DNA of 64,000 bases from the IMG/VR virus record IMGVR_UViG_3300028805_004760, positions 96,001-160,000 of that record. One strand, written 5' to 3'. The notes beneath the pieces are model-generated. The model ran no database searches and was not told the DNA's origin. It worked only from the letters and a program-made list of their open reading frames with translations. This document shows, piece after piece, positions 1-49,645 of the stretch. Source of the DNA: a virus (lineage: Duplodnaviria > Caudoviricetes). Position 1 is the first letter of the stretch; every line of letters starts with the position of its first letter. The translations under genes were made by a program, and so were the position numbers.

Positions 1-42
1 GCTTAACAGGCCGCCGCTCTAACCGTTAAAAGCTATGCACCC
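1..42 (-). tRNA. tRNA-Asn(GTT), truncated by window edge
   Basis: Reverse complement gives acceptor 5' strand, D-arm and anticodon loop CTGTTAA. Confidence 0.85.
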
Positions 43-57
43 AATAAATAATTTATT

Positions 58-129
58 TGCTATGTTTGTGGATTCGAACCACCTTCTGCGTGCCGCCGGC
101 CGCCATTCTGACCATTAAACTAGAACATA
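58..129 (-). ncRNA. tRNA-like element with non-canonical anticodon arm
   Basis: D-arm and GGTTCGAATCC T-arm intact; anticodon arm is GCGGCCGGCGGCACGC with no 7-nt U33 loop. Confidence 0.55.
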
Positions 130-221
130 CAAGTATCGGCAAATACTTCGTTTGTTAAACTACTTCTAACTTTACATAGAATTGCCGTCCTATATAAACT
201 TAGGGTTCGTTTAGCCGATTG

Positions 222-311
222 CGGTCCCTACGGGAATTGAACCCGTCTGATTCGGTATTACCTTTCTCCTGAGTGACAGTCAGGCGTCCACACCATGCAG
301 ACCCAGAGACC
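222..311 (-). tRNA. tRNA-Asp(GTC) with long variable region
   Basis: CCTGA-CTGTCAC-TCAGG anticodon arm; about 20-nt variable region; T-arm GGTTCAATTCC. Confidence 0.85.
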
Positions 312-325
312 AATAAATTTATAAG

Positions 326-400
326 TGGGCTCGCTGGGGGATGATCCCAGAATCTCGCGGCTTATGAGGCCGGTATTTTAACCTATTAAACTACAAGCCC
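326..400 (-). tRNA. tRNA-Met/Ile2(CAT) with atypical T-loop
   Basis: Anticodon loop CTCATAA; T-loop ATCATCC instead of TTCRANY. Confidence 0.75.
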
Positions 401-431
401 AATTCGTATTCATTATTACGAATTTTATTTG

Positions 432-516
432 TGGGATAGGTAGGATTCGAACCTACTGAGTTTCATAGTAATGGTTTTACAGACCACCGCCCATCCACCA
501 TCTGAGCCGCTATCCC
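432..516 (-). tRNA. tRNA-Tyr(GTA)
   Basis: Loop CTGTAAA, long variable arm, canonical T-arm. Confidence 0.9.
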
Positions 517-640
517 AAATTCAATTTTACAGATAATTGAGAACTGTATTGGAGGCTCCTCGTTTTTCTGAGAGAAATTAATTTCCACTGGGTCAGCAAG
601 CCATTGTCACCCAACCTACTGCAGTTTAGGTCTTTAAAAG

Positions 641-713
641 TGGAAACGAAGAGAATCGAACTCTCCCATCAACCTTGCAAAGGTCAATCGCCAGCCTTGG
701 AACATTCGCCCCC
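641..713 (-). tRNA. tRNA-Ala(TGC)
   Basis: Loop TTTGCAA; G3:U70; A73. Confidence 0.85.
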
Positions 714-1081
714 AATATAAAAGAATATCCACGCCCGATTTTCACAGACTTATTGCACTTTCGTAACCTAATCCCCATATAGTTGACGTCTACCATGAGG
801 GTGGTGGCTGAGAGTTAAAATCCAACTCACAACAAGATATTCTTAAAGGTTCGCCGTGGGTTGTATTTCACTTCCCGACCTTCCCAAGACTTACTCTTTC
901 AACAATTCCTTTGGTAATCTCATTTCATTTGTTAATAATTGAATAGCCGGTAATAACGATTAATATTAATCTCCCGAAGTTTGTCCATTCAATCCATCTT
1001 ACTCTGAGGGCTACTCGTTCATTTGCAATTTAATGCAGTTGATACCATACGCCAGGATGTTATTACTTAACTTCCGACTAG

Positions 1082-1155
1082 ATCCGAGTGTCAGACTCGA
1101 ACTGACAACCTCCTGATTACAAGGCAGGGGCTCTACCAATTGAAGCTAACCCGGA
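1082..1155 (-). tRNA. tRNA-Thr(TGT)
   Basis: Loop CTTGTAA; canonical D and T arms. Confidence 0.85.
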
Positions 1156-1160
1156 ATGTT

Positions 1161-1291
1161 TAGGATCATTATCCGATTGGATAAAATTAAAAGTTCTATC
1201 ATTAAACCCTCGGTGATCCTTTTAAACAGTTGAGATTGAACTCCGATTGAACAGAATTATAAGTTCTATTATTAAACCCTCGGCAATCTCA
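1161..1291 (-). repeat. Two tandem copies of a ~60-nt structured motif
   Basis: Shared core TCCGATTG..AAGTTCTATxATTAAACCCTCGG (+ strand) with different, self-complementary closing stems. Confidence 0.75.
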
Positions 1292-1693
1292 TAATAATAT
1301 AGAATTTCTGTAATATCACCGACATGTGTCAGCTGCGTTATTGTTCACAAACGCGAATCCTGCGAAATTCTATTATATAATGATAAGGAAATTCTGTTGT
1401 TCTTTAATGTTCCCTTGTTCCATATAAATGAGGCCCGATGACTACCCATCAAACATTAAAGAATATATTTACTGAACTATACCGCTGGGCTGCTTGGCAT
1501 CCCATTGACAGTGGTTTTACACCAACCTCTTCCGTATCAGTTTAATATTTGATATTAATTAGTACATGCGATTTTATGTTAATGACCTCTGTCCGTACTG
1601 ATTATTTACCTCAGTAAAGCAATCTTACCAAATATTGGCTTGGAGGGGTCCTCCGTGACGCTACCCACGTATATCTTTTAATATCATATTTTC

Positions 1694-1724
1694 TTTATTT
1701 TGTTGTACCAATATGTCAAAGAAC
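1694..1724 (-). promoter_or_regulatory. boxA-like antitermination element GTTCTTTGACATATTG
   Basis: 31-nt exact repeat of 12841-12871; resembles rrn boxA; lies just downstream of promoter motif 1780-1808. Confidence 0.7.
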
Positions 1725-1779
1725 TCAATTTCAAAAACTAAATATTCATATTATATTAGTTTTCAAATATTATATTAAT

Positions 1780-1808
1780 AATATAGTTCATTAAAAAATT
1801 ATTTCAAA
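1780..1808 (-). promoter_or_regulatory. Phage early-type promoter (TTGAA..16-17 nt..TATATT)
   Basis: Matches the motif repeated at 13 or more sites in the window. Confidence 0.65.
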
Positions 1809-1848
1809 TTTCTAAGAAATATTTTTAAGAATTATTTATTAATTTTTG

Positions 1849-1917
1849 TTTCCTCTAGTTGGACTCGAACCAACGCCCACCGGCCTTCCCGGTGCTCTAC
1901 CCCTGAGCTATATGGAA
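1849..1917 (-). ncRNA. tRNA-like element lacking an anticodon loop
   Basis: Canonical D-arm (TAGCTCAGGGGTAGAGC) and T-arm; anticodon arm ACCGG-GAAGG-CCGGT has a 5-nt loop. Confidence 0.65.
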
Positions 1918-2013
1918 CCTCGTATTCAAAAAAAACTACCATACTCCATTATATACATACGGCCGATATTATATAACTTCATTACTCTCATTAATCATCC
2001 TACTAAAAAACTG

Positions 2014-2084
2014 TTGGACCTACGGGACTCGAACCCATAACATGAGGACCAAAATCTCACGTGTTACCATTACACCAAGGTCCA
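2014..2084 (-). tRNA. tRNA-Gln(TTG)
   Basis: U1-A72, loop TTTTGGT. Confidence 0.9.
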
Positions 2085-2340
2085 GTTTATAAAAATCCAG
2101 TACTATTCTTCTATAATGTTCATTTAAGTGTAAATCCTTGCTCTACATGTGGTGGGCCACTTTACCCTGATTTTCAAATTCCCATGGAAATTATCAATCC
2201 CTCATATATAGTACCTTTGTACCTTTATTGAATTATTGCTCCTTTTGCCTATTTAGAAGTATCGGCTGACTACGTTATAGAATCGGAATTGAACCGGTTC
2301 TTCAATAACCCAATGGATTTTATATAATCTTGAGTTCAAT

Positions 2341-2430
2341 ATTTCAAAGAACAATTCAAATAATATTTAATGTTTAAATAATATTTGTTTTATATAATTA
2401 TAATATAGTAACTTTATTTTTAATTTCAAA
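2341..2430 (-). promoter_or_regulatory. tRNA array B promoter plus boxA (TTGTTCTTTGAAAT)
   Basis: 2341-2410 is identical over 70 nt to 13059-13128; includes the TTGAAA..TATATT promoter. Confidence 0.75.
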
Positions 2431-2450
2431 TATCTAAGATATTTTTTTAT

Positions 2451-2490
2451 AAAAAAATAAGCGGTTAAGAATTTCATTTCCTAACCGCTT
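2451..2490 (-). terminator. Intrinsic terminator (attenuator) of leader B
   Basis: Stem AAGCGGTTAGGA/TCTTAACCGCTT followed by a U-tract on the minus strand. Confidence 0.85.
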
Positions 2491-2515
2491 GCGTATATTA
2501 TTATTTAGTTTATAT

Positions 2516-2629
2516 TCAAAAATCTATTTCCGTAGATTGCAAGCGGTCTTTACATATGTCATAATTCTTATTCCAAGCATTTACTAATGTTTGGTCGGCA
2601 TTTTGTTTATATGTATTAACTGTTTGCAT
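2516..2629 (-). CDS. Putative attenuator leader peptide B (37 aa, MQTVNTYKQNADQTLVNAWNKNYDICKDRLQSTEIDF)
   Basis: ATG..TGA ORF overlapping antiterminator 2539-2547; composition matches the downstream tRNAs. Confidence 0.75.
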   Translation of the reverse strand: MQTVNTYKQNADQTLVNAWNKNYDICKDRLQSTEIDF

Positions 2630-2688
2630 TATAGTTTAATTTAATTTAATTTAGTAATAATAATATTTAATTTAGAACTTGGATAAAA

Positions 2689-3864
2689 TTATTTCAAATT
2701 TTTCTTAATTTCTTCAATCATTTTATTAACTTTATCTAAATATTCTTTAGAATCATTAATTTCTGATTTAGCATTAACTCTTTCCCATTCTCCATATACT
2801 TCAGGATTTGCGGCTCCCCTTTCTCTTGCACGTTTTACAGATCTTTCTGCTGTATTTGAAGATTGTAATGATTTATATAATGATTCATATGCATAAGATA
2901 CATATGTCATTAATCTACCCATATCAAAACTTTGTGTTAAATTTTCTGGTGAACTTACTACTTGTTTATAAAGAGCAACAACTTCATCATTTGCTTTCTT
3001 AATATCATCAAATAATAAATTAGGATCCTTTTGAAGTTTCTTAGCTTTAATTTCAGCAACCATTGTTTTATAACGTGATTGTTGTTTATTAAGAAGTTCT
3101 TTTAATGATTCAGCATCATAATTAATTGCGCCTTTCTTTTGTTCTTCACGAGTTGTAGCAACATCTTTATAATCCTTAATCATAGAATCAGTAATTTCAA
3201 GTGCCATTACTTTAACACCTTCAACTTGTGCCAAATCTTTAAGCATATCTACAACTTCATTAGCTTTCATTGAACGTGTTTGATATGAATAATAAGGTTT
3301 TGTCACTTCTTTAACACCATTACCCCATTTACCATCTGTTTTAAAATAGAATACACCATCTGCTTTATCGTCTTTTCCATAAGCTTTAATAAAGTTAAGA
3401 ACCTTATTATCTTTTGTCATTACAATAAAATCTGCATTCTTATCTTTCTTTCCATAAGTAGATTTAATAAGTTTTATTAATTCCTTATTGTCTGGTGCAT
3501 ATTCTTTAAAATCTTCATCTTTAATTTCAGACCATTTAAGACCTTGTAATCCCTTTTTTAAATTATATTTGCCACCATCTGTCTTAGGACCAAATATAGA
3601 TGCAAAATTAGTTAAATTTGGTTTGTAATAATCATCAGAATAATTACGGCCTTGTTCTTCATTACGTTTCTTTCTATCTTTTTCGTCTTGAATTTTACGT
3701 TTATTATTTTCTTTTTCAGCATCAAATATAGCTTGTGCTAAAGTAGAAAGAATACTAGATTTAAATGATTCATTAATCATATCTTCTGCTATCATATTTG
3801 CTTCTTCTTTAATGATTGCAGAATTCCATCTTGAATCTACAATATATTCAAATAATTGTTTCAT
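2689..3864 (-). CDS. Hypothetical phage protein (likely start MKQLFEY)
   Basis: Long ORF with typical composition; the upstream 25 codons overlap a terminator. Confidence 0.8.
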   Translation of the reverse strand: MKQLFEYIVDSRWNSAIIKEEANMIAEDMINESFKSSILSTLAQAIFDAEKENNKRKIQDEKDRKKRNEEQGRNYSDDYYKPNLTNFASIFGPKTDGGKYNLKKGLQGLKWSEIKDEDFKEYAPDNKELIKLIKSTYGKKDKNADFIVMTKDNKVLNFIKAYGKDDKADGVFYFKTDGKWGNGVKEVTKPYYSYQTRSMKANEVVDMLKDLAQVEGVKVMALEITDSMIKDYKDVATTREEQKKGAINYDAESLKELLNKQQSRYKTMVAEIKAKKLQKDPNLLFDDIKKANDEVVALYKQVVSSPENLTQSFDMGRLMTYVSYAYESLYKSLQSSNTAERSVKRARERGAANPEVYGEWERVNAKSEINDSKEYLDKVNKMIEEIKKNLK

Positions 3865-3907
3865 TTTACATATAGTTATATTTATAATTAATATATATAA
3901 AAATAAC

Positions 3908-3950
3908 AAAAAACCAATGATAATTTTAAAAACTACCATTGATTTTTTTT
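3908..3950 (-). terminator. Terminator of tRNA array A
   Basis: Hairpin CAATGGTA/TATCATTG flanked by A and T tracts, directly after the last tRNA. Confidence 0.65.
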
Positions 3951-3968
3951 TGTAATGTCAATTGCGAG

Positions 3969-4048
3969 TACCCCTACTCCGATTCGAACGGAGACCCAAT
4001 TAAGGACCGCTTTTGAGACGGCTGCGTAGACCATTCCGCCATAGGGGC
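3969..4048 (-). tRNA. tRNA-Leu(CAA)
   Basis: Loop CTCAAAA, variable arm. Confidence 0.9.
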
Positions 4049-4054
4049 ATATAT

Positions 4055-4139
4055 GTAGGGCTGAAGGAATCGAACCTCCACGTGTCCTATCGGTAGGCAC
4101 CGCACGTTTCCATGTGATAGTAACTAGCTATCTGCCCTA
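4055..4139 (-). ncRNA. tRNA-like element with GGAA loop in place of the anticodon loop
   Basis: Acceptor TAGGGC/GCCCTA, T-arm GGTTCGATTCC, long extra arm, no 7-nt anticodon loop. Confidence 0.55.
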
Positions 4140-4165
4140 ATGTTACATATTGATACAACAAAATT

Positions 4166-4414
4166 TTAATTTATCTTATACAATTCTTCATTTTCAATTG
4201 CTCGTCTTATCCATCTCATCAATATTAAAGCTTTATCATAATGATACATAAATGTAGCAGTTTCTCCAACATCATGTTTATCAGACAAATCAATATCAAG
4301 TGAATATATTGTACCATCTTCTACTGTTATATGATAAACAGCAATTCCGCCTGCCTTTACACAATCAAGATTAGCAGAGCCTTTTACAATTGTCTTTAAA
4401 TCATGAGTAATCAT
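4166..4414 (-). CDS. Small hypothetical phage protein within the tRNA array
   Basis: 82-aa ORF, co-oriented, natural composition. Confidence 0.75.
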   Translation of the reverse strand: MITHDLKTIVKGSANLDCVKAGGIAVYHITVEDGTIYSLDIDLSDKHDVGETATFMYHYDKALILMRWIRRAIENEELYKIN

Positions 4415-4436
4415 TTTTCTCTCCTATATATTTATG

Positions 4437-4500
4437 TGGTTGGGATTACTGCAGTCCTCCACAGTATCAGTGTGGTATGCAATTATTACACCAAATCCCG
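4437..4500 (-). ncRNA. T-armless tRNA-Ile(GAT)-like element with encoded CCA
   Basis: GGGATT/AATCCC acceptor, CCACA-CTGATAC-TGTGG anticodon arm, no T-arm. Confidence 0.6.
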
Positions 4501-4502
4501 AG

Positions 4503-4586
4503 TGCCCTCCACGGGAGTCGAACCCGCACCCATTTTACCGGACCAGCTCCTTAGGCTGACGTGTCTACCAATTCCACCAAAAGGGC
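4503..4586 (-). tRNA. tRNA-Leu(AAG)
   Basis: TCAGC-CTAAGGA-GCTGG; Leu-type D and variable arms. Confidence 0.85.
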
Positions 4587-4666
4587 ATCGCTGTGGATGT
4601 TACTTTACTGTTCATGACCAGACAATTTTAAAAGAAAATCCACCATAAAGAAAATCAAAAATTGTG

Positions 4667-4747
4667 TGCGGCTAGTCAGATTCGAACTGACACCCATATA
4701 ATGGACGGCTTCTTAGACCGCTGCGTCGACCGTTGCGCCATAGCCGC
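4667..4747 (-). tRNA. tRNA-Leu(AAG)
   Basis: GCGGT-CTAAGAA-GCCGT; Leu-type body. Confidence 0.85.
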
Positions 4748-5048
4748 AGATTAATTCCCATTCTAACAAGCAATATAAAGTGTTTGCAACCACAATATAC
4801 TGTTAAAATGTCCTAATAAATATTAACCAATAGTACAGCACCAATTGCTGTTATTGAAAATTAATATCGTTCGGCTTGATGAGGTCCTTTTTTAATTGGT
4901 AACGATAACTTCCAATCACCAAGTCATCAAATGGGAACTATAATTCGCATGGTTATCTTAATTCCGTTTGGTTATCTAGAAATGCTTAGGAATTCTTACT
5001 GTTCATAAGTACGAGTCAAACCATTGCATAAACTACGTATCGTATTCG

Positions 5049-5122
5049 TTGGGCTGGTCGGAGTCGAACCGACGATCCCTTGCTTGTAAGGCAAGTGCTT
5101 TAAACCACTAAGCTACAGCCCA
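5049..5122 (-). tRNA. tRNA-Val(TAC)
   Basis: CTTGC-CTTACAA-GCAAG. Confidence 0.9.
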
Positions 5123-5410
5123 ATAAATATAGTTTTTGGTAAGAACTATAAAAAACTTATCCTACTTGACATCAATTTTTAGTTTTCGGACTACCCAGCA
5201 CGCTACCCTAAATTCACCTTAATGGTTATAAAATCCATCCTTCTTCCAATTAATATAAAATAGGCCTCTTTTATAATAATTTGCTACTAAAAGTCTTTTT
5301 CTGGGTTGAGAGGATTTTACTATTTTATGGAGAATTTACTCCACTTCGTCATCTAAATAGCGAAAGACTAGCACAAGATATTGGCTTGCATCGCTCTACC
5401 TTGGCACGTG

Positions 5411-5484
5411 TTGGGGTACCGGGACTCGAACCCAGAACTTCTGCTTCAGAGACAGATGTGTTAACCAATTACACGCATACCCCA
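5411..5484 (-). tRNA. tRNA-Gln(CTG)
   Basis: Loop CTCTGAA; U1-A72. Confidence 0.9.
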
Positions 5485-5485
5485 A

Positions 5486-6301
5486 TTATTTATAGGTAAT
5501 ACAATTAAAATCATTGCATTTAACTTTTATATTATTTAAATTAAATTCTTTAATTATATCTGATGTACATTTAATGTTATTAAATTCAAACCAATCATCA
5601 ATTTTTCTATTCCATAGAGCATTTGCTTGTTCTCCTTTATTAGTTAATCTTTTAATATATTCTTCTAAAGATTTAAATAAAAAATGTTTAACATATATAT
5701 TACAAAAATTAATATAACGTCCTATATAATTAATTTTAAAAAAATGTGGAATTAACACAAAATTATTTAAAGTAGATAAATTGTGTTTACAATTAATAAT
5801 ACATTTAAAATTAAAATACTTTTGATTAAATTTTTCATTATATTTTGTATATGTATTAAAAATACTGTATTTTTGATGATTATATGGATGATATAAATAA
5901 TTATTAGATAACATTGTTTTCCAACACATACTTATACACAATTTATCAAAATTATCATTTAATACATTATATAATTGTTCTTTTGTACAATCAATATATT
6001 CGTCTGGATCTATAAATGCCATCCAATCATAATTATTTTTCCAAAGACGTTCAAATATATGATAAACGATTTTTTGTCTAAAAACTCTATTATTTAACAT
6101 TTGAAATTCTTCGTCATTACATATATCTGTAATCTGAAAAATATGAACATAATTATATTTACTTAATAATTCTTTATGAGATTTACTATCAAAATCTTCA
6201 ATTAAATAAAAATCACCAAATCCTAAATTATGATGATATTCAATCCATTCTTCAATATAATCGTGTTCATCTTTGATTATTTGACATATACATAATTTCA
6301 T
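5486..6301 (-). CDS. Glycosyltransferase (GT2-like/GT92 type)
   Basis: N-terminal ICQIIKDEHDYIEEWIEYHHNLGF and WMAFIDPDEY DxD motif. Confidence 0.8.
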   Translation of the reverse strand: MKLCICQIIKDEHDYIEEWIEYHHNLGFGDFYLIEDFDSKSHKELLSKYNYVHIFQITDICNDEEFQMLNNRVFRQKIVYHIFERLWKNNYDWMAFIDPDEYIDCTKEQLYNVLNDNFDKLCISMCWKTMLSNNYLYHPYNHQKYSIFNTYTKYNEKFNQKYFNFKCIINCKHNLSTLNNFVLIPHFFKINYIGRYINFCNIYVKHFLFKSLEEYIKRLTNKGEQANALWNRKIDDWFEFNNIKCTSDIIKEFNLNNIKVKCNDFNCITYK

Positions 6302-6443
6302 ATATTAATATAAATTATATAAATTTAAAGATACTTACACAAACTCCAAGTCGCCGGCTTGTATGTCTTGAGTTTCCTTAGTTACAGCGAGAATTCTTTG
6401 TTAAACTTCTGTACATACCATACCTCTCCCTCAGTATCTTTAG

Positions 6444-6523
6444 TACCCTCAGTGAGATTCGAACTCACACCCAATTAAGGACAGATTCTAAGTCTGCTGC
6501 GTAGACCATTCCGCCATGAGGGT
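6444..6523 (-). tRNA. tRNA-Leu(TAG)
   Basis: GCAGA-CTTAGAA-TCTGT. Confidence 0.9.
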
Positions 6524-6786
6524 AAATTGTGTCCTTGTTCCATTAACGCAGTCTTAGGCACCGAACCACACGGATAGTTCATTACTTTAATTAACTAATC
6601 GTGCTCCTCCATACACTACTCATTCAATATATATCTCAGGCATGGTGTTTCACCCTTGTCTTATTAGTTAATTTTAATGGGTTACAACTATCAAAAAACC
6701 AATATATGTCCGCCCTATACCAATTAAAGTCGGTGTCTCTTGGTAAAATCCAAGGCTCTCTTATAATTTAAGCTAATAGGACAACG

Positions 6787-6871
6787 AGCGGGTAAAGGGA
6801 ATCGAACCCTCATCTCCAGTTTGGAAGACTGGTATAATCAGCTAAATGCCTGACCATTATACGATACCCGC
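6787..6871 (-). tRNA. tRNA-Gly(TCC) with enlarged D-loop
   Basis: CCAGT-CTTCCAA-ACTGG; extra TCAGGCATTTAGCTGA hairpin in the D-loop. Confidence 0.85.
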
Positions 6872-7067
6872 ATAAACATGATCTTTCGAGTTTCAATGAG
6901 GTTCCTCACCCTCTACAGGATATTGTTCGTAAACAAAACTCTAACTAACGCTTCTACTGGTCCCTCAGATCATGAACTTAAGGAATGGAGCGGACGTTCT
7001 CCCCAGTACCGACGAGGGAACTGGCAGTTTCGATTAATAGGCCTGTGCACCAACCTATTACTACATG

Positions 7068-7156
7068 CGGAGAGCACTGGGGTCGAACCAGATCCAGATA
7101 CTATCCGAACGCACTGCTTAGCAGGCAGCCGCTATCACCGTTTAGCATTACTCTCC
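7068..7156 (-). tRNA. tRNA-Ser(GCT)
   Basis: Loop CTGCTAA, long variable arm, G73. Confidence 0.9.
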
Positions 7157-7220
7157 AATTTGGTTGATTAACTAGCTCAACCATAAGCCTCGATATAATT
7201 ACTACTATAAGTAGAATTTC

Positions 7221-7294
7221 TGGGGGTTATGCCGGAGTCGAACCGACCTAGACAGAACCACAATCTGTCGTCCTACCGATAGACGAATAACCCC
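7221..7294 (-). tRNA. tRNA-His(GTG)
   Basis: Loop TTGTGGT; G-1:C73. Confidence 0.9.
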
Positions 7295-7496
7295 ATGTAA
7301 AGATAATTTTATAAAATAGGTGTTGCCAAAACTTAAATTATCATTCATAAATTTCTTACCCAAGACCACCGGAGTTTTCCTTGATACTATTTCTAGCCGT
7401 ACTTCTTCCTATCATAGGGATAACCCACTACTCCAATTGGTATTACTTAAAATTTATGCCATATAAAACACTATTTATATGAAAGTTTTATCCAAG

Positions 7497-7582
7497 GGTG
7501 TTAGACGAGATTCGAACTCGCATTGGAATTTCTTCCGATGATTCACAGTCACCTCCCTGTAACCAATTCGGGTACTAACACC
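7497..7582 (-). tRNA. tRNA-His(GTG) with long variable arm
   Basis: Loop CTGTGAA; variable hairpin GGAA-GAAA-TTCC. Confidence 0.85.
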
Positions 7583-7624
7583 ATATTAAAAAATTTAAAA
7601 TTTGTTTAAATGAGTTTGTGAGAC

Positions 7625-7948
7625 TCATAGAATTTCCACCACTTTACCAAAAATGTTTTTTCTAGTTATAACACCATTTGGTTTACCATGATTATTACCA
7701 ATCAAAAATCTATCACCTGCTTTAATACTCCATATTAAATGCAAATAATAATGACCATTAACTTTACAAAGAACTATGTCTCTTTTATTTAATATAGTTT
7801 CATTTGTAACTGGTATACAAATAACTGGTTGCCTTGATTTAAGTATTGGCGTCATAGAATTCCCAACACCAGTTATTTTAACAATTTCTCCAGCTTGTAA
7901 ATGTTCGGCAGAAATTCTGTTTTCTAATCCACTGTAAGTGTATTCCAT
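7625..7948 (-). CDS. Peptidase S24/S26-like (LexA/signal-peptidase fold) small protein
   Basis: GNSMTP motif, DIVLCKV, HLI, GNN, IFGKV. Confidence 0.75.
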   Translation of the reverse strand: MEYTYSGLENRISAEHLQAGEIVKITGVGNSMTPILKSRQPVICIPVTNETILNKRDIVLCKVNGHYYLHLIWSIKAGDRFLIGNNHGKPNGVITRKNIFGKVVEIL

Positions 7949-8230
7949 AACAAAATTTCAAATATTTTTAAAAAAATAAAACAGGTCAACCTTAAATCCC
8001 TGTAATGTGGCGATAAGTTTTTTATCATAATCAAGGCTTATGACTGCACAAGCTATGAGGGCGCCATTTCAACTAAAACCTCGTCAAAGGCCATGTTTAA
8101 CGATACATGTATCGAATCCCGATTTTACCACCCTAAGCGGATTTTTCAGAGGCCTCAGGGAATCCTCTGTATTGGGGTGAACAGGAATTGAATTTAGTTC
8201 ACCAGTTTTGTCATTCAATTCCAAGAACTG

Positions 8231-8302
8231 AGCAGCGTACGAGGTTCGAACTCGCTCCTGAACATTGGCAATGTCCTATGCCACCATTAACACCTACACT
8301 GC
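8231..8302 (-). tRNA. tRNA-Gly(GCC)
   Basis: Loop TTGCCAA; U73. Confidence 0.9.
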
Positions 8303-8484
8303 ATTTGTGGTAAAACCCATACCATCTCGATGATAACTACCACAAGTATAAAATATCTGACAATATTAAATACTAAGTTTCTGACATATCTCCATCAATA
8401 TATAAGAGATTTATAAAGAAATAAAATAAATGTCAGTTTATAATAATTCTTTAATAAATATTATATACCTTCTGATAAGCATTG

Positions 8485-8558
8485 AGCGGATAATGGGACT
8501 CGAACCCACAACTTTCAGACTGGCAGACTGACACTCTAACCAATTGAGCTATACCCGC
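8485..8558 (-). tRNA. tRNA-Gly(GCC)
   Basis: Loop CTGCCAG; U73. Confidence 0.85.
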
Positions 8559-8559
8559 A

Positions 8560-8602
8560 TGGAGCAGGGAGGACTACGTGGCGTGCCTCACCACAACCCT
8601 GC
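8560..8602 (-). ncRNA. 43-nt mini-tRNA with Gly-type acceptor and UCCA end
   Basis: GCAGGG/CCCTGC-T-CCA plus one internal hairpin GTGGTG/CGCCAC. Confidence 0.5.
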
Positions 8603-8701
8603 ATATTAAAAATCAACATTCCAAACTAGAACAAGATAATATTCTCTAATGTTAATCCTCTTCGTTTAATTAACCTGGTATATCATCAAGAGAATATATT
8701 G

Positions 8702-8845
8702 TTGCGCGGGCCGGACTCGAACCGACATAAGATTGTGTTTCAGACAATTGTGTAAACCGTAATTTGAAGTAGCTCTCATCTACAGCATCCTATTAAAGAG
8801 CAACAGCGATAAAAGTTAATAAAAATAAAATTTCACCACCGCGCA
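8702..8845 (-). tRNA. tRNA (GAA by position, Gln-like U1-A72 body) with ~70-nt D-loop insertion of the Y-RNA-like module
   Basis: TGCGCGG/CCGCGCA acceptor; ATTGT-CTGAAAC-ACAAT; insert contains CTTTTATCGCTG and GATGAGAGCTACTTC. Confidence 0.65.
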
Positions 8846-8847
8846 AG

Positions 8848-8921
8848 TAACCCACATGGGATTCGAACCCATTACTCCAGCTTGAGAAACTGGTGACTTA
8901 AACCTATCTGTCCCGAGGGCC
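8848..8921 (-). tRNA. tRNA-Glu(CTC)
   Basis: CCAGT-TTCTCAA-GCTGG. Confidence 0.85.
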
Positions 8922-9023
8922 ATATATAAGGCAGTTATTCCTATATCTTCAAATCTTATGATTTGCTTGTCAGATGATCCGGATCTTTGTGAACTGTTAT
9001 CAACAAATAACCCCTTATATTTG

Positions 9024-9095
9024 AGCGGCTGATGGGAGTCGAACCCACGTCCCTGGATTGGAAGTCGAGTATAATAGCCGTTATACGACAGCCGC
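9024..9095 (-). tRNA. tRNA-Gly(TCC)
   Basis: Loop CTTCCAA; U73. Confidence 0.9.
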
Positions 9096-9100
9096 AAATT

Positions 9101-9245
9101 AAATTCATGTAACCAGCGATAAAAGTAATACATTAGAGTTGGATTCGAACCAACGACCTCCGAATTAAACATTCGGTGTTCTAGCCACTGAACTACCCTT
9201 TCAAATATTGGCGAAAGAAGTAACTCTTATCTTCAACAATGAATT
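9101..9245 (-). ncRNA. Y-RNA-like module enclosing a colinear tRNA-like domain
   Basis: GATAAGAGTTACTTC ... D-arm, CCGAA-TGTTTAA-TTCGG arm, T-arm ... ACTTTTATCGCTG. Confidence 0.6.
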
Positions 9246-9377
9246 ATAAAATTTTGCAATTTTAATTTGCAATATGGGTGGAGGTATCTTATCACCATCA
9301 GATATCAGATTATTTTTCTTTGAAATAAATATTATAGAGCTCATCTAATAATTATTTCGCAAGTGAACCTCCATGTG

Positions 9378-9450
9378 TAGGGATGGGTGGAATCGAACCA
9401 CCTTCTACGGCTTATGAGACCATCGTAATAAACCGTTATACGACATCCCC
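9378..9450 (-). tRNA. tRNA-Met/Ile2(CAT)
   Basis: ATGGT-CTCATAA-GCCGT. Confidence 0.85.
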
Positions 9451-9510
9451 ATTGGTCGGGCCCGAACTCCATCCTACCTCGAGTAGCATAGGGTGGCGAA
9501 CCCGTTATTG

Positions 9511-9584
9511 TTGGGCTACTGAGACTTGAACTCAGGACCTCTACATTATCAGTGTAGCGCTCTAACCAACTGAGCTATAGCCCA
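9511..9584 (-). tRNA. tRNA-Ile(GAT)
   Basis: CTACA-CTGATAA-TGTAG. Confidence 0.9.
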
Positions 9585-9717
9585 ATAAAAATATCTAATC
9601 TACACACTGCTCTCGACCGTCGTCTCACAGTTCCTTCTGATGTTCTACCGTCGTAGTAATGGATTTTCACCATTTATTTCAACATCTCCTCTTCCACTAT
9701 ACCTCAATTAGATATTG

Positions 9718-9792
9718 TTGGGGAACCGAGATTCGAACTCGGACCTTCTGCTTCAAAGGCAGATGTGCTCAACCATTACAACTCATTCCCCC
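9718..9792 (-). tRNA. tRNA-Gln(TTG)
   Basis: TCTGC-CTTTGAA-GCAGA. Confidence 0.85.
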
Positions 9793-9796
9793 AATA

Positions 9797-9926
9797 TAGC
9801 AAATATGTTATCCTATTACACTAATGACAGATTTTACACTTTCAGAACAATATTCTAGAACTATTGGACATCGGTCATATAGACCTCGATACTGCCATGC
9901 TGGGCTCGAACCAACATCTTTTACCT
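9797..9926 (-). ncRNA. Circularly permuted tRNA-like element
   Basis: Order is T-arm, acceptor 3' strand TGGCAG, ~55-nt linker, acceptor 5' strand CTGTCA, D-arm. Confidence 0.55.
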
Positions 9927-9932
9927 AAAGAT

Positions 9933-10011
9933 ATTCCCGTAACTATCGAATAAAGTATCTAAGTAAAACATTGACAGTGTTTGAAGTAACTCTATTCTTC
10001 AACAAGGAATT
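9933..10011 (-). ncRNA. Minimal Y-RNA-like module (no tRNA domain)
   Basis: GAATAGAGTTACTTC ... short hairpin ... ACTTTATTCG, closed by ATTCC/GGAAT. Confidence 0.55.
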
Positions 10012-10012
10012 G

Positions 10013-10086
10013 TAGGGAGGCCCAGATTCGAACTGGGATTGCGGACGTATCAGATCCGGAGCCTAAACCGTTTAGCAGATCTCCCC
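10013..10086 (-). tRNA. tRNA-Ile(GAT)
   Basis: CGGAT-CTGATAC-GTCCG. Confidence 0.85.
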
Positions 10087-10357
10087 ATATAAATTGAAAT
10101 TCTTGCAAGATTATATATAAAATTCATTCTGCTTACCATCTGGACTCACATTACTTACTAATTATATATAAAATTTCAATTTAAATTAAAATAAAGTTCT
10201 GTTCCATCTCGGACAATGTATTAATCCTAAAGCCTATGGGAGGTTTTTCTTTATGGCCAACTCGATCATTACCTCCAGCAAGTGTTATGTGATTTATTTC
10301 CGGATAACCCATAACTCTTATGCCAACTTTACCCATCTATCTGGGATATGAACTTTG

Positions 10358-10444
10358 TAGCTCTGATGGGAGTCGAACCCACACGGGCCTTCCGGCCCGA
10401 CAGATTTTAAGTCTGTTGCGTACTACCAATTTCGCCACAGAGCC
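10358..10444 (-). tRNA. tRNA-Leu(TAA)
   Basis: ACAGA-CTTAAAA-TCTGT. Confidence 0.9.
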
Positions 10445-10452
10445 ATAATATG

Positions 10453-10526
10453 TACGGGTAACGAGGTTCGAACCCGTATCTCCACCTTGAAAGGGTGACC
10501 ACCTAACCTATTAGTAAGATACCCGC
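10453..10526 (-). tRNA. tRNA-Glu(TTC)
   Basis: TCACC-CTTTCAA-GGTGG. Confidence 0.85.
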
Positions 10527-10543
10527 ATATTAATTTATTGTTG

Positions 10544-10618
10544 TAGGGGAGACCGGACTCGAACCGGCAACAAGCTACGCCCCAAACGTAGTGACTTAAC
10601 CTATTAGTCTACTCCCCT
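10544..10618 (-). tRNA. tRNA-Pro(TGG)
   Basis: CTACG-TTTGGGG-CGTAG. Confidence 0.85.
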
Positions 10619-10788
10619 AACTTAATCATCTTACATGAGCACCTTATTTCAGCAGCTCTCCGCATCTAACTTTCTCCCAGTATGACAACCAGTTACAGTT
10701 CCATCTCGTGCGTCTTCTGTGGACTATGTCAACTTACTACAAACCTTCACGAACCTCAGATGATTTTTACCTTTGCCAAGGTTGGTTG

Positions 10789-10862
10789 TCGGGATGACTG
10801 GACTCGAACCAGCGACCTCATGTTCCCAAAACACGAATACTAACCAACTGTACTACATCCCG
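10789..10862 (-). tRNA. tRNA-Pro(TGG)
   Basis: CGTGT-TTTGGGA-ACATG; C1-G72. Confidence 0.9.
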
Positions 10863-10996
10863 ATTTGTAATATTTCTATTTCCTCGTCTCACTATAGCAG
10901 CCCGCTGCAGACGTCCCTATAGATCTTACCGAGTCCTATCCTTTATGGGCAAACTTTGTAGCTACATTACCGGAGTTTGCATAGACAATATTACAA

Positions 10997-11077
10997 TGGT
11001 CGGGATGACGAGACTCGAACTCGCATAAACCACATTCCAAGTGTGGACGGTTAAACCAATTACCGGCATACATCCCG
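10997..11077 (-). tRNA. tRNA-Pro(TGG), CCA encoded
   Basis: CCACA-CTTGGAA-TGTGG; A37 instead of G37; irregular D-arm. Confidence 0.85.
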
Positions 11078-11191
11078 AATTTAGATATTTAAGTTATAAT
11101 TACGTCTTTATAACATTTCCATACGCTCCTGCTTTCCGGAAATTAGTATGGCGTAATTTACGGTTCGGACTTATACTATTAAATATCTGTG

Positions 11192-11267
11192 TACTCGGTA
11201 CGGGACTCGAACCCGTAATCTCGCACCTTGAAAGAGTGGTGTCTTAAGCCAATTCGACTAACCGAGC
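11192..11267 (-). tRNA. tRNA-Glu(TTC)
   Basis: Loop CTTTCAA. Confidence 0.85.
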
Positions 11268-11549
11268 GTTATAAAAATCTTTCCTAATCCTTGTACTTAA
11301 TATTTCCTCTACATTCCACGTAGGCGAGGTACTTCTTGGCGCCTTAAGTAACAAGATAACTCTAAGATATGAAAACATTAATCTATATTATGCGCAAATG
11401 TTTCTTAATGTTTTCAGAGTTTCATCATAAGATCATAATACTAATGTACTCACTTATAATGTTCTTAAGTAAAACTGAATACACGTCTGGGTTTTTTGTT
11501 TAATTCAGTACTTAATTAATATGTAAAAGTGCAAATAAACTTTTACATG

Positions 11550-11638
11550 TGGGAGCACGAGGAGTCGAACCTCGGCCTTCAGATTTTCAGTCTGACACGC
11601 GCTAACTTTTCAGTAATAACCGGCTACGCTATACTCCC
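11550..11638 (-). tRNA. tRNA-Phe(GAA) with enlarged D-loop
   Basis: TCAGA-CTGAAAA-TCTGA; about 15 extra nt in the D-loop. Confidence 0.8.
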
Positions 11639-11646
11639 AAATTTTG

Positions 11647-11719
11647 TGGAGCGGGGTGGACTCGAACCACCATCTACGGATTTTCAGTCCGCCGCATTGA
11701 CCATCTCTGCCACCGCTCC
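11647..11719 (-). tRNA. tRNA-Phe(GAA)
   Basis: GCGGA-CTGAAAA-TCCGT. Confidence 0.9.
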
Positions 11720-11729
11720 AAGTATTATG

Positions 11730-11804
11730 AGGGTAGAGCCGGATTCGAACCGGCGGCTTTACGGTTTTGCAGACCGTTCCCTTGGACCACTCGAGCATCT
11801 ACCC
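11730..11804 (-). tRNA. tRNA-Cys(GCA)
   Basis: ACGGT-CTGCAAA-ACCGT; U73. Confidence 0.9.
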
Positions 11805-11911
11805 AAATAATATTCAAATATTGCAATCATTCAACATTCTGCCACCCAGGCATATAACCCAAGGAAAGATTTAAACTTCTGACTTCTTATAAAGAATATA
11901 TTTGAATATTG

Positions 11912-11986
11912 ACGCCGTGACCGGACTCGAACCGGCATTCAACAGTTTTGCAGACTGAGGGCTAAATCCATTCACACCACACGGCA
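11912..11986 (-). tRNA. tRNA-Cys(GCA)
   Basis: Loop CTGCAAA; U73. Confidence 0.8.
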
Positions 11987-11991
11987 ATTTA

Positions 11992-12159
11992 AAATTTCAT
12001 AGAAAAAACGAATAAAGTATTGAACCTAATAGCCGCGTATACCAATTTCGCCACCTCGGCGCATTATTGGCCAAGGACGGGACTTGAACCCGCAATCCGT
12101 AATGGAAGCAATTTTCATTAATTTTAATTGAAGTAACTCTACTCTACACTAATGAAATT
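11992..12159 (-). ncRNA. YrlA-like Y RNA: long closing stem plus permuted tRNA-Leu-like domain
   Basis: GAGTAGAGTTACTTC ... variable arm, T-arm, CCTTGGC-loop-GCCGAGG, D-arm ... ACTTTATTCG. Confidence 0.65.
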
Positions 12160-12161
12160 CG

Positions 12162-12252
12162 CGGAGAAGGCCGGACTCGAACCGACACGCCGTGTAACCG
12201 ACTACTGGTAGTTTTCAAGACTACTGCCTTACGCAATTAGGCTTACATCTCC
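12162..12252 (-). tRNA. tRNA-Ser(TGA)
   Basis: GTAGT-CTTGAAA-ACTAC; long variable arm. Confidence 0.9.
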
Positions 12253-12384
12253 AATTTAAAAATGAGATTAATTCGAAGTTACCTTTTCGGCGTTAACATA
12301 TATCCGTTTAACAGGAATATATCATGACATAGGTACCCTCAGCCGATATCCTACCTTCAGGGGGAAATCTCTTAAAACCCAATG

Positions 12385-12469
12385 CGGAGGCGGTAGGATT
12401 CGAACCTACGGACCCTCTCGGGCCTCTGGTTTTCAAGACCAGTGCAATCGACCACTCTGCCACACCTCC
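12385..12469 (-). tRNA. tRNA-Ser(TGA)
   Basis: CTGGT-CTTGAAA-ACCAG. Confidence 0.92.
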
Positions 12470-12840
12470 AAATTAAAAACTTCCTACATCTGTCTTAGAG
12501 CAATTAACCAAACGCCTTTCGGATACGGTGCAGATTCTCACTGCTTTTCTCTTTCACAGTCCCCATCACGTTGCTTTACGTACCTATGACCTTAATCACG
12601 TGTTTGCCACTACAAGATCTTTCAACTGTCAATTCAGTATGCCCGTAGAAGGTTCAATATTAAAATTCCCTTCAGCCTCGGAAGTTATATATTTTTATAA
12701 ATCTCATAAACCCGTTACGATTGCTCTTGGTTCAGCGCTTTACGTATTCATTCTATTTCAATGCCCTTCTGAGAGTTTATGACTTACAACCTGGATCCCT
12801 CTGTACCTTAGAATCGTTGACCAATCCAGGTAATTTATTT

Positions 12841-12871
12841 TTTATTTTGTTGTACCAATATGTCAAAGAAC
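12841..12871 (-). promoter_or_regulatory. boxA-like element GTTCTTTGACATATTG
   Basis: Exact repeat of 1694-1724. Confidence 0.7.
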
Positions 12872-12894
12872 AATTAAACTTAATTAAAAGTTTG

Positions 12895-12966
12895 TAGCCC
12901 GTAGGGGAGTCGAACCCCTCTTTTGAGAATGAAAATCTCACGAACTAACCGATATTCGAACGGGCC
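12895..12966 (-). tRNA. tRNA-Glu(TTC)
   Basis: TGAGA-TTTTCAT-TCTCA. Confidence 0.9.
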
Positions 12967-12973
12967 ATCATTG

Positions 12974-13055
12974 TACCCCCACTGGGATTCGAACCCAGAC
13001 CCAATAAATTGGACAGATTTTAAGTCTGCTGCGTAGACCTTTCCGCCATGGGGGC
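12974..13055 (-). tRNA. tRNA-Leu(TAA)
   Basis: GCAGA-CTTAAAA-TCTGT. Confidence 0.9.
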
Positions 13056-13058
13056 GTC

Positions 13059-13148
13059 ATTTCAAAGAACAATTCAAATAATATTTAATGTTTAAATAAT
13101 ATTTGTTTTATATAATTATAATATAGTATCTTTTATTTTTATTTCAAA
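13059..13148 (-). promoter_or_regulatory. tRNA array A promoter plus boxA
   Basis: 70-nt identity to 2341-2410; TTGAAA..TATATT promoter followed by TTGTTCTTTGAAAT. Confidence 0.75.
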
Positions 13149-13166
13149 TTTCTAAGAAATTTTTTT

Positions 13167-13206
13167 AAAAAAATATCTCCAGAACTTTTTTCAAAATTCT
13201 GGAGAT
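13167..13206 (-). terminator. Intrinsic terminator (attenuator) of leader A
   Basis: Stem ATCTCCAGAA/TTCTGGAGAT followed by a U-tract. Confidence 0.85.
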
Positions 13207-13240
13207 TTATATATTGTTACCTTATTATAGTATTTCTATT

Positions 13241-13354
13241 TTATATTTCCGCATCTCCAGAACATGTTATGCTAAGTTGAAAGCCTAATTCACAAGGTTC
13301 ACCAAAAATTGATGATCCTAACATAGGGATAATATGTAAACTTTGCAACTTCAT
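13241..13354 (-). CDS. Putative attenuator leader peptide A (37 aa, MKLQSLHIIPMLGSSIFGEPCELGFQLSITCSGDAEI)
   Basis: ATG..TAA ORF overlapping antiterminator 13253-13262; composition matches array A tRNAs. Confidence 0.8.
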   Translation of the reverse strand: MKLQSLHIIPMLGSSIFGEPCELGFQLSITCSGDAEI

Positions 13355-13501
13355 ATATTCTTTCGATTTGTTTTTATTTATATAATAATATAATTTAATT
13401 TAGACTTTGGATAAAAAATATTCAAATATTTAAGAATTTTTTTAAATATAATATATCCGAAGTTATTTTTAAATATAGAAATTTAATAAAAATAATTAAA
13501 T

Positions 13502-48997: not shown

Positions 48998-49645
48998 TTA
49001 TAAATGATTCTTGATCAAAATAGGTTCTAAATGACTACGAATATCTTTTTCATATGAATGCCATTTTTCTTTCTTTACTTCATATTCCATTGTTTCGCGA
49101 GCATCTAATTGGGCTTGCTGTTTTGAAAGACCACAACATTGCCAATCAATCATTAATGCTTCCCAATCTATTTTATTCCAACCATGTTTTAATCCATATT
49201 CTAGGTGATGCTTATTGTGGTTACGATGCCACTTTTGGACTTTCTTATAATCACCTTTCCATAATAGTTTAAGCCATGGTTTTTCAATATCATGCAATAA
49301 ATATTTAGGTTTCCATATTCCTAAATTCAATGCAGTTAATTGAAATCCACACCAATGAGCGAACCAATAACTAAATGAACTACGATCTTCTTTTCCAAAC
49401 ATACTGAATGAAGTATATTTTTGAAATACCTCATCTAATGTTTTATAATATTCAAAATTAAATGATTCATCATTAGCATCAACGATCATATAATTATATT
49501 CATCCCTATGATTAATCCATTCATATTTGAAATATTCTTCAAAATCTGAAATATCACGTTCTGATGGATTTTTAAGATTATAAAGATGATATAATCCTTT
49601 GCGCTGAATAATTGTTGGTTTAAGTCTTAAATAATCGTTAAGCAT
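48998..49645 (-). CDS. HD-domain-like protein
   Basis: LLHDIEK, HRNHNKHHLEY, MIDW. Confidence 0.65.
   Translation of the reverse strand: MLNDYLRLKPTIIQRKGLYHLYNLKNPSERDISDFEEYFKYEWINHRDEYNYMIVDANDESFNFEYYKTLDEVFQKYTSFSMFGKEDRSSFSYWFAHWCGFQLTALNLGIWKPKYLLHDIEKPWLKLLWKGDYKKVQKWHRNHNKHHLEYGLKHGWNKIDWEALMIDWQCCGLSKQQAQLDARETMEYEVKKEKWHSYEKDIRSHLEPILIKNHL

Follow-up and report, generated by a model that had tools for sequence, protein, structure and literature searches.

Leader cassettes ahead of the two tRNA arrays of a rumen jumbo phage as candidate ribosome-mediated attenuators sampling the tRNAs encoded downstream

We analyzed a 64,000-nucleotide (nt) stretch of a caudoviricete genome (IMG/VR record IMGVR_UViG_3300028805_004760; hereinafter, the window), in which transfer RNA (tRNA) genes form two co-oriented arrays, A and B, each headed by a small leader cassette. 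The cassette ahead of array B (leader B) combines a 37-codon open reading frame (ORF) with an intrinsic terminator, one strand of which is also complementary to a segment within the ORF, and the cassette ahead of array A (leader A) repeats this plan in unrelated letters. Judged from the sequence, the best explanation for these cassettes, and one that we regard as probable, is that they constitute ribosome-mediated attenuators in which the codons of the leader probe the supply of tRNAs from the downstream array. An attenuator interpretation of leader B had been put forward in an earlier note on this DNA (the original prediction), and it is partly supported by the analysis reported here. The principal modification concerns a second promoter, P2, which very probably lies between the leader terminator and the array.

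The leader B ORF is present as originally described, with the same 37-residue product and the same length as the ORF of leader A (Table 1), although this equality is not conserved: the homologues of leader B run from 32 to 38 codons and those of leader A from 36 to 43. The claimed 9-nt complementarity between the coding region and a stretch overlapping the 5' arm of the terminator (2547-2539 with 2492-2484) was likewise found. The hairpin and its U tail are also there, with 13 pairs (5 G-C and one G-U) and a loop of 6 nt in place of the 12 pairs that had been counted. The shared strand, segment 2, could therefore pair alternatively with segment 1 in the ORF, giving an antiterminator, or with segment 3, giving the terminator; the leader B stop codon lies 24 nt ahead of it. 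As a control for chance, we collected the terminator-like hairpins from either strand of the complete 376,291-bp genome (n = 66) and sought a complement to each 5' arm at 15 to 130 nt upstream. None of at least 7 nt was found for 63 of them and one had a complement of 7 nt; only the two leader cassettes (2 of 66) carry complements of 9 and 10 nt, situated 57 and 56 nt upstream, respectively. In RNA truncated before segment 3, the minimum free energy (MFE) structure is the helix of segments 1 and 2 in both leaders (-17.6 kcal/mol, z = -4.14, and 0 of 200 shuffles as good in one; -13.5 kcal/mol, z = -2.39, and 5 of 200 shuffles as good in the other), and in the full-length fold the terminator wins in both. 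Since the antiterminator precedes the terminator in the course of RNA synthesis, read-through would be favored unless segment 1 is occupied, for instance by a ribosome. A further element at the start codon, segment 0, which sequesters segment 1 in the MFE structure of the full RNA, was discarded as not conserved, by eye, in the metagenome loci L023, L024, and L026.

Table 1. Features of the leader cassettes and tRNA arrays, in window coordinates
Feature	Position	Strand	Details
tRNA array B, part within the window	1-2084	-	Gln-ttg (2013-2084), Thr, Ala, Tyr, Met, Asp, cut Asn
Non-tRNA RNA element	2085-2341	-	255 nt, between the P2 leader and tRNA-Gln
Box P2	2341-2458	-	consensus phage promoter TTGAAA-16-TATATT (2429-2402) and conserved 5' leader ending GTTCTTTGAAAT
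Intrinsic terminator B	2451-2490	-	stem-loop 2459-2490; U tract 2451-2458, tail ATTTTTTT
Leader B segment 2, shared strand	2478-2492	-	antiterminator 3' strand 2484-2492 (GCAAGCGGT); terminator 5' arm 2478-2490
Leader B ORF	2516-2629	-	ATG start, 37 codons + TGA, 114 nt
Leader B segment 1, antiterminator 5' strand	2539-2547	-	ACCGCTTGC, codons 28-31
Hairpin within leader B ORF	2573-2594	-	codons 12-19; in MFE folds
Box P1 of cassette B, presumed leader promoter	2645-2726	-	TTGAAA-17-TAAATT at 2697-2669
tRNA array A	3968-13055	-	31 genes: Leu, Glu, Ser, Cys, Phe, Pro, Ile, Gln, Met, Gly, His, Val
Leader A terminator	13175-13206	-	14 pairs, loop 4, U tract
Leader A ORF	13241-13354	-	37 codons, 114 nt; paralogous cassette
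Leader A segment 1	13253-13262	-	TTCTGGAGAT, codons 31-34; complementary to 13197-13206

The alternative pairing is preserved by double changes in relatives. When 10 distinct leader B cassettes are aligned, the 13 pairs of the antiterminator are intact in 90.6% of 128 cells, and in five of them both partners have changed; 0 of 500 shuffles attained the covariation score, and controls in which the strands were slid against each other gave 22 to 42% paired cells. The 12 pairs of the terminator in the same number of cassettes are 94.2% paired, again with five double-change pairs and 0 of 500 shuffles reaching the score. One column triplet (94:163:188) covaries across all three segments, reading G:C:G in two sequences and A:U:A in the other eight. 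Another hairpin, within the ORF (codons 12 to 19), has stems that are invariant and a loop codon that varies among the 10 homologues; it is possibly an RNA polymerase pause hairpin.

Leader A serves as a replicate of this arrangement, with the stretch complementary to its segment 1 (13206-13197) constituting the 5' arm of its terminator and with letters unrelated to those of leader B. Four DNA homologues of leader A were recovered, and the CTGG/CCAG pair of the window is replaced by CCGG in the other three, a compensatory change. In one of them, that of the viral contig G002, a frameshift just before segment 1 makes the ORF six codons longer and leaves the nucleotides of segment 1 unchanged. 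A further scan with a degenerate pattern for leader A returned only the three viral contigs already found. A third ORF of 37 codons in the window, at 8666-8779, proved to be a by-product of tRNA-like sequence and no leader.

We then compared the codon content of the leaders with the tRNA content of the arrays. The genome is a single contig of 27% G+C, in which the window corresponds to the minus strand of 277130-341129, and belongs to a rumen jumbo phage; the DNA and RNA runs that contain the stretch are sheep and bovine gut metagenomes. ARAGORN identified 38 tRNA genes in the window, all on its minus strand, and 65 tRNA genes plus one transfer-messenger RNA (tmRNA) in the genome. Array B amounts to 29 genes extending from window position 2084 to about 6 kb past window position 1, and its part to the left of the window encodes four tRNA-Asn (the first spanning the window edge), Leu(taa), two Trp, six Lys, Val(tac), Asp, Tyr, Met, Thr, Ala, Gln, and a tRNA with a cta anticodon. 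The Lys, Trp, and Val tRNAs foretold there from the residues of the leader are accordingly present. The opposite outcome, a continuation rich in Gly, Pro, His, or Ser tRNAs, did not occur, and the genome-wide ARAGORN list places no Gly, Pro, His, Ser, Glu, Phe, Cys, or Ile tRNA in array B. A small Arg/Thr tRNA cluster lies at 92 to 95 kb of the genome.

By this inventory, E, S, C, F, P, I, G, and H have tRNAs in array A alone (A-only), T, A, Y, D, N, W, and K in array B alone (B-only), and L, Q, M, and V in both. A-only and B-only residues stand at 24:4 in leader A and 6:21 in leader B (Fisher p = 2.4e-6), and at 19:2 and 2:18, respectively, when only the codons before segment 1 are counted. 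Among 83,781 windows of 37 amino acids (aa) drawn from the ORFs of the phage, a skew matching that of leader A is seen in 6e-5 and one matching that of leader B in 0.8%; among the 653 small ORFs (30 to 45 codons) of the genome, 0.6% and 0.15% are as skewed as leaders A and B, respectively. The absence of Gly, Pro, and His from leader B, the confinement of its Ser, Glu, and Phe to codons past 31, and its counts of Lys (three), Val (two), Trp (one), and Arg (one) are as originally reported. The visible array B set (Q, T, A, Y, M, D, and N) covers 18 of the first 25 residues by hand count, one fewer than had been claimed, and 24 of 25 belong to the full array B set once K, V, W, and L are added. 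By codon (counted by hand in the window), 25 of 27 positions before segment 1 of leader B and 28 of 30 in leader A are readable by the leader's own array, the unreadable ones being ATA25 and TGT26 in leader B and AAG2 and ACA30 in leader A. A ribosome covers about 12 to 15 nt ahead of its P site, and three of these four codons adjoin segment 1, so a ribosome held there would cover segment 1.

The proposed partition of amino acids between the leaders, paralleling that between the arrays, holds across a diverse family. A profile built from 10 leader B peptides recovered 29 proteins at E ≤ 0.001 from 1.84 billion cluster representatives, of which we used 28 (32 to 60 aa) after dropping one of 703 aa (P0024), dividing each into head and tail four residues after an invariant Trp. 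The heads (663 residues) comprise 412 B-only, 221 shared, and 30 A-only residues, 22 of the last being Ile, and they discriminate sharply between similar residues: D58:E0, K51:R0, T84:S3, Y48:F1, N108:H2, and A36:G1, with P absent and C found once. The tails (319 residues) do not discriminate in this way (D22:E25, K12:R5, T20:S7, A26:G16, and C35), and the phage proteome contains the members of each of the pairs D and E, T and S, and Y and F at roughly equal frequency. The heads of six distinct leader A peptides (151 residues, hand count) show the reverse preference (E11:D0, S28:T0, F14:Y0, H6:N0, and G18:A0), their sole B-only residue being the Lys at codon 2, and B-only residues make up 25 of the 77 in the leader A tails. 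Each head thus excludes the most frequent conservative substitutions, with the preference inverted between the two leaders; such a composition is difficult to attribute to peptide function and is the one that selection on tRNA identity would produce. We also considered a link between tRNA-Ile(tat) and ATA codons, as in all three related viral contigs (G001 to G003) array B includes this tRNA and the head of leader B contains ATA; we gave it no weight, since leader B of the window, where the tRNA is in array A, has one ATA, as does leader A of G003.

A distant blastn search with 2300-4000 against 50,697 phage records gave no match. The relatives were instead reached through the 416-aa gene that precedes leader B, which led to a viral contig of 236 kb (G001), and through patterns of the leader-core DNA, which retrieved the viral contigs G002 and G003 and 11 metagenome loci; together, these three contigs and 11 loci supply 10 distinct DNA homologues of leader B. 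Two candidates were rejected on the way: L003, a chance hit of the first degenerate pattern in a G+C-rich contig, and L002, which encodes a 25% relative of the 416-aa protein and is without tRNAs. The order leader A, array A, leader B, array B is kept in all four genomes, and the tRNA types are divided between the arrays in nearly the same way, with Ile(tat), and in some also a Ser or Ile(gat), relocated to array B in the relatives. The gene before leader B is the 416-aa gene in our phage, a 226-aa gene in G001, and none in G002, G003, or the locus L027, where leader B follows array A directly with no intervening protein gene. Because this gene varies or is absent, the leader goes with the array and not with the 416-aa gene.

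The ATG-started frame is open through segment 1 in all 10 leader B and all four leader A homologues, and the other frames contain two to eight stops. In L023, L024, and L026, segment 1 is entered in another frame and the ORF is still open, L023 and L024 subsequently regaining the shared C-terminal NDxEG motif. Three types of C-terminal motif (..DHL.., ..ATC.., and ..PL..) occur among the 28 database peptides and, as far as peptides can tell, fit one nucleotide string read in three frames. As frames shift and the ORFs nevertheless stay open, selection keeps an open frame across segment 1 and not the peptide sequence there. The N-terminal two thirds of both leader peptides are conserved, and stretches of 28 to 29 nt of the leader core are identical in DNA between phages whose neighboring protein is only 56% identical.

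The original prediction called the two leaders unrelated, which is true of their ORFs and terminators and not of their flanks: 82 nt upstream are 73% identical and 118 nt downstream 93% identical between the cassettes. The upstream box, P1, aligns with 13373-13454 of cassette A and contains in both cassettes the hexamers TTGAA(A/T)-17-TAAATT, a core motif unique to the two cassettes genome-wide. The downstream box, P2, aligns with 13059-13176 and belongs to a class of phage promoters with 33 regular-expression matches in the genome, every one of them intergenic and on the genome plus strand; 22 of the 33 are situated 17 to 57 nt before an ORF of at least 80 aa, and three are tRNA-array sites. 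That all 33 matches lie between genes on one strand suggests that the genes of one temporal class share a single transcribed strand. The consensus of the class is very regular (TTGAAT-TTTTT..(A/T)CTATATTAT-ATTTGTAAT), and weaker matches occur in the window, e.g., at 49552 and 45529. Neither the Arg tRNA cluster nor the tmRNA gene has a leader cassette in front, P2-like promoters alone being found there. The L027 locus departs from the common layout in that its tRNA-Leu(taa) starts about 6 nt after the tail of the leader B terminator, before P2.

Taken together, these elements suggest the following mechanism. Each array would be headed by a cassette in which a special promoter (P1) leads into a translated ORF, some 37 codons long, and the three-segment switch, and the transcripts from P1 would be translated from the leader start. 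When translation is smooth, the ribosome would cover or abut segment 1 as segments 2 and 3 emerge, the terminator would form, and the P1 transcript would end. If the ribosome were delayed in the first 22 to 26 codons, or never loaded, segment 1 would be left free, the antiterminator would form, and the array would be transcribed. The sensing codons would thus act as a sampler of array-encoded tRNAs rather than as a run for one amino acid, and a shortage of any tRNA of an array would raise the transcription of that array. As the sampling codons match the array's own tRNAs, this would amount to negative feedback on each array. P2 would supply a stream independent of the leader, the latter gating an additional stream from upstream in a tandem-promoter layout, with read-through contributing some presumed share beside P2. 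A more elaborate form, in which the two leaders provide two-channel feedback, each testing its array's tRNAs codon by codon and topping up only that array when one runs short, is a tentative extension that we think less probable than the attenuator itself.

Several observations weigh against this attenuator model. The most important concerns P2, which in both cassettes separates the terminator from the first tRNA, so that the attenuator does not separate the only promoter from the regulated genes; the arrays could therefore be expressed without read-through, and the leader would gate the extra upstream stream only. A P2-like box with no accompanying leader likewise fronts the tmRNA and also an internal portion of array B. 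P1 is a putative leader promoter on the strength of its hexamer match and conservation. No Shine-Dalgarno sequence precedes either leader, as is also the case, by eye, for other genes of the phage. With a ribosome footprint of about 28 nt, we estimate that a ribosome at the leader B stop codon would fall about 6 nt short of segment 1. The match between leaders and tRNAs is imperfect, given the ATA and TGT codons at positions 25 and 26 of leader B and AAG at codon 2 of leader A, and Ile is frequent in the leader B family heads (22 of 663 residues), three relatives carrying tRNA-Ile in array B. The Arg tRNA that had been foretold for array B is not there, all four Arg tRNAs of the genome lying in the cluster at 92 to 95 kb; the sole Arg codon of leader B lies within segment 1 and is not conserved. 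Finally, the homologues are related, so that the counts above are not of independent events, and for the database peptides (P0001 to P0033) the comparison is one of peptide sequences.

Other explanations have to account for the same observations. The cassettes might be general gauges of translation, in which a ribosome-dependent terminator switch reports overall capacity or coupling and the amino acid bias is a by-product. A three-segment switch is indeed indifferent to the cause of ribosome slowing, the antiterminator would form first in the absence of a ribosome, and each amino acid occurs only one to five times as against the long runs of classic leaders. We nevertheless consider such a gauge unlikely, since it leaves unexplained why the head of leader B uses D, K, T, Y, N, and A without E, R, S, F, H, and G when its tail uses both, and why leader A has the reverse preference. 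It is also improbable that P1, ORF, and terminator simply make up stand-alone genes for peptides of 32 to 43 aa, with the arrays served by P2 only and the terminator insulating P2. This account draws on the full consensus promoter directly behind the terminator, the conservation of the N-terminal two thirds of both peptides, and the 28 relatives called small proteins in public data; it gives no purpose to a covarying complement of the terminator arm in the coding region, which only 2 of the 66 terminators possess, and does not anticipate a C-terminal third in differing frames among relatives or the discrimination of D from E, T from S, and K from R, which is not expected from selection on a peptide fold. 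Nor does cassette A have a co-oriented gene upstream that would need insulation.

The terminated leader transcript of about 180 nt could itself be the product, as a trans-acting or dual-function small RNA (sRNA) comparable to rnTrpL of Sinorhizobium, and sRNAs derived from attenuators have been reported (PMC6614838 and PMC7968998). The leader-core stretches that are identical between otherwise diverged phages would suit this idea. No target was found, none having been sought, and the correspondence of amino acids to the tRNA set is left unexplained; the idea is compatible with the attenuator rather than exclusive of it, and as a replacement for the attenuator we hold it to be highly improbable. 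That AT-rich DNA yields small ORFs and hairpins by chance, with a coincidental match of composition in two peptides, is very unlikely and the least credible of these accounts. The 653 small ORFs of the genome and the surplus of promoter-like hexamers (26 found versus 16.4 expected in 2.6 kb) show how readily the raw ingredients arise, but the rarity of the skew, the covariation, the restriction of long complements to 2 of 66 hairpins, the open frames, the contrast of heads with tails, and the conservation of both cassettes in at least three other phages all speak against coincidence.

Leader-peptide attenuators are well known from the enterobacterial trp, his, leu, thr, ilvGMEDA, and pheA operons, several of which are represented in Rfam (His_leader, Trp_leader, Thr_leader, and Leu_leader). 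The phage cassettes resemble them in that a short translated ORF is kept open, an intrinsic terminator is present, an antiterminator that competes with it for one strand overlaps the ORF within reach of a ribosome, so that the two structures are mutually exclusive, and the control codons are tied to downstream supply, here in the modified sense of codons cognate to the encoded tRNAs; the thr and ilv leaders are also multivalent, with two to three amino acids. They differ in that the downstream genes are tRNAs and not biosynthetic enzymes, so that the gauge would read tRNA supply rather than amino acid supply; in sampling 11 to 12 amino acids one to five times each with no run; in having three segments instead of four, whereby an untranslated leader should read through and not super-attenuate; and in the second promoter behind the terminator, which is foreign to the classic order of promoter, leader, and genes. 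Closer in subject is Escherichia coli pheST, in which the pheM leader attenuates a gene of the translation apparatus by reading charged tRNA-Phe; it regulates a synthetase, senses one amino acid, and is cellular rather than of phage origin. The T-box, too, is an antitermination device responding to tRNA status upstream of translation-related genes, but it binds uncharged tRNA directly and needs no ORF, whereas here the ORF is conserved. The rrn P1-P2 pair offers a parallel for serial promoters before stable-RNA genes, one possibly regulated and the other basal, with the difference that its regulation is at initiation and that here an attenuator would gate the upstream stream from a putative P1. 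No Rfam leader family or T-box matched at E ≤ 1 in window 1-15000, where the Rfam matches were to tRNA, to antisense plastid tRNA models, and to three weak sRNA or cis-regulatory families far below their gathering scores, none of them at the cassettes. In the parts of the full-text literature exposed to our search, no account emerged of tRNA genes or arrays under the control of a leader peptide.

The region between the P2 leader of cassette B and tRNA-Gln is occupied by a non-tRNA element, the 3' half of which is strongly conserved in four phages (L001:10768-11016, L015:1583-1814, and L020:6769-7023) and which has no match in Rfam. We compared window 1-14000 with two sheep-gut RNA runs (X3 and X5) and two DNA runs, in the form of contigs. 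As contigs cannot show RNA starts, ends, or levels, and with 32 of more than 2,000 pieces listed, the word depths of 1.9 and 2.5 (X3) and 0 (X5) in the leader bins, 18 to 2335 in the array bins, and 92 to 109 in the DNA run X1 describe these pieces only. One contig from an RNA run links 2341 back to 2087 (it "goes back 255", depth 29, side 31), which could reflect a circular or permuted RNA or an assembly artefact. The motif GTTCTTTGACATATTGGTACAA recurs inside arrays (window 12874-12850 and 1723-1700 on the minus strand, L006:2015-2040, and L020:7225-7250), and GTTCTTTGAAAT, a shortened version of it, stops 3 nt short of both the tmRNA and the first tRNA of array A; the motif may serve in processing or mark a 5' end. 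The tmRNA itself (genome 103338-103744) specifies the tag ANDELVDDAWLNSWEYRMAA and has a P2-like promoter in front.

The long spacers between the tRNAs of array B are not AT-rich filler, and one stretch of 1,014 nt (window 710-1723, minus strand) is represented with zero differences by one contig of depth 85 in the metatranscriptome run X3 (record 9); because of this contig, the arrays may encode further stable RNAs besides tRNAs. Two ARAGORN calls on the minus strand are odd, namely, one of 90 nt with a four-base anticodon (tagc) at 11549-11638 and a 68-nt "Leu(aag)" at 1850-1917 that is too short for a class II tRNA, and two tRNA-like stretches (9136-9197 and 11003-11075) are scored by Rfam and not typed by ARAGORN. 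The terminal gene of array B (genome 347128-347199) is a tRNA of the amber suppressor type with the anticodon cta (labeled "Pyl" by ARAGORN), and G002 has a cta-anticodon tRNA at the corresponding place. The standard genetic code nevertheless fits most ORFs, 87% of the genome being covered by ORFs of at least 100 aa. Protein genes within or between the arrays include one for a family 2-like glycosyltransferase (5486-6301, minus strand) and that for the 416-aa protein (2689-3939, minus strand). Scans of nine large neighboring proteins against Pfam and PHROGs found little overall and assigned no family to the latter. The arrays have been rearranged around the 416-aa gene, as its array position differs in relatives, being elsewhere in the array (after Ser-gct in G001) or missing from the spot upstream of leader B.

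The tRNA genes of phages are usually regarded as constitutively expressed cargo. If the attenuator model is true, the cassettes would represent a new use of a textbook mechanism, in which tRNA availability feeds back on tRNA genes, and the first regulator of a phage tRNA array to be described, as far as the literature within reach of our search indicates. The opposite discrimination of similar residues by the two leaders (D/E, T/S, K/R, and Y/F) is an unusually clean and testable signature that can be used as a search rule for such sensors in other tRNA-rich phages, and the cassette offers a compact natural part for reporters of the availability of single tRNAs. If the tentative two-channel feedback also holds, the shortages to be sensed might arise from a host tRNA pool ill-suited to the AT-rich codons of the phage or from host defense nucleases that cut particular tRNAs, and the division of amino acids between the arrays would be a regulatory design of two regulons with complementary sensors rather than an accident of gene order. 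The finding bears on how a phage matches its tRNA supply to demand.

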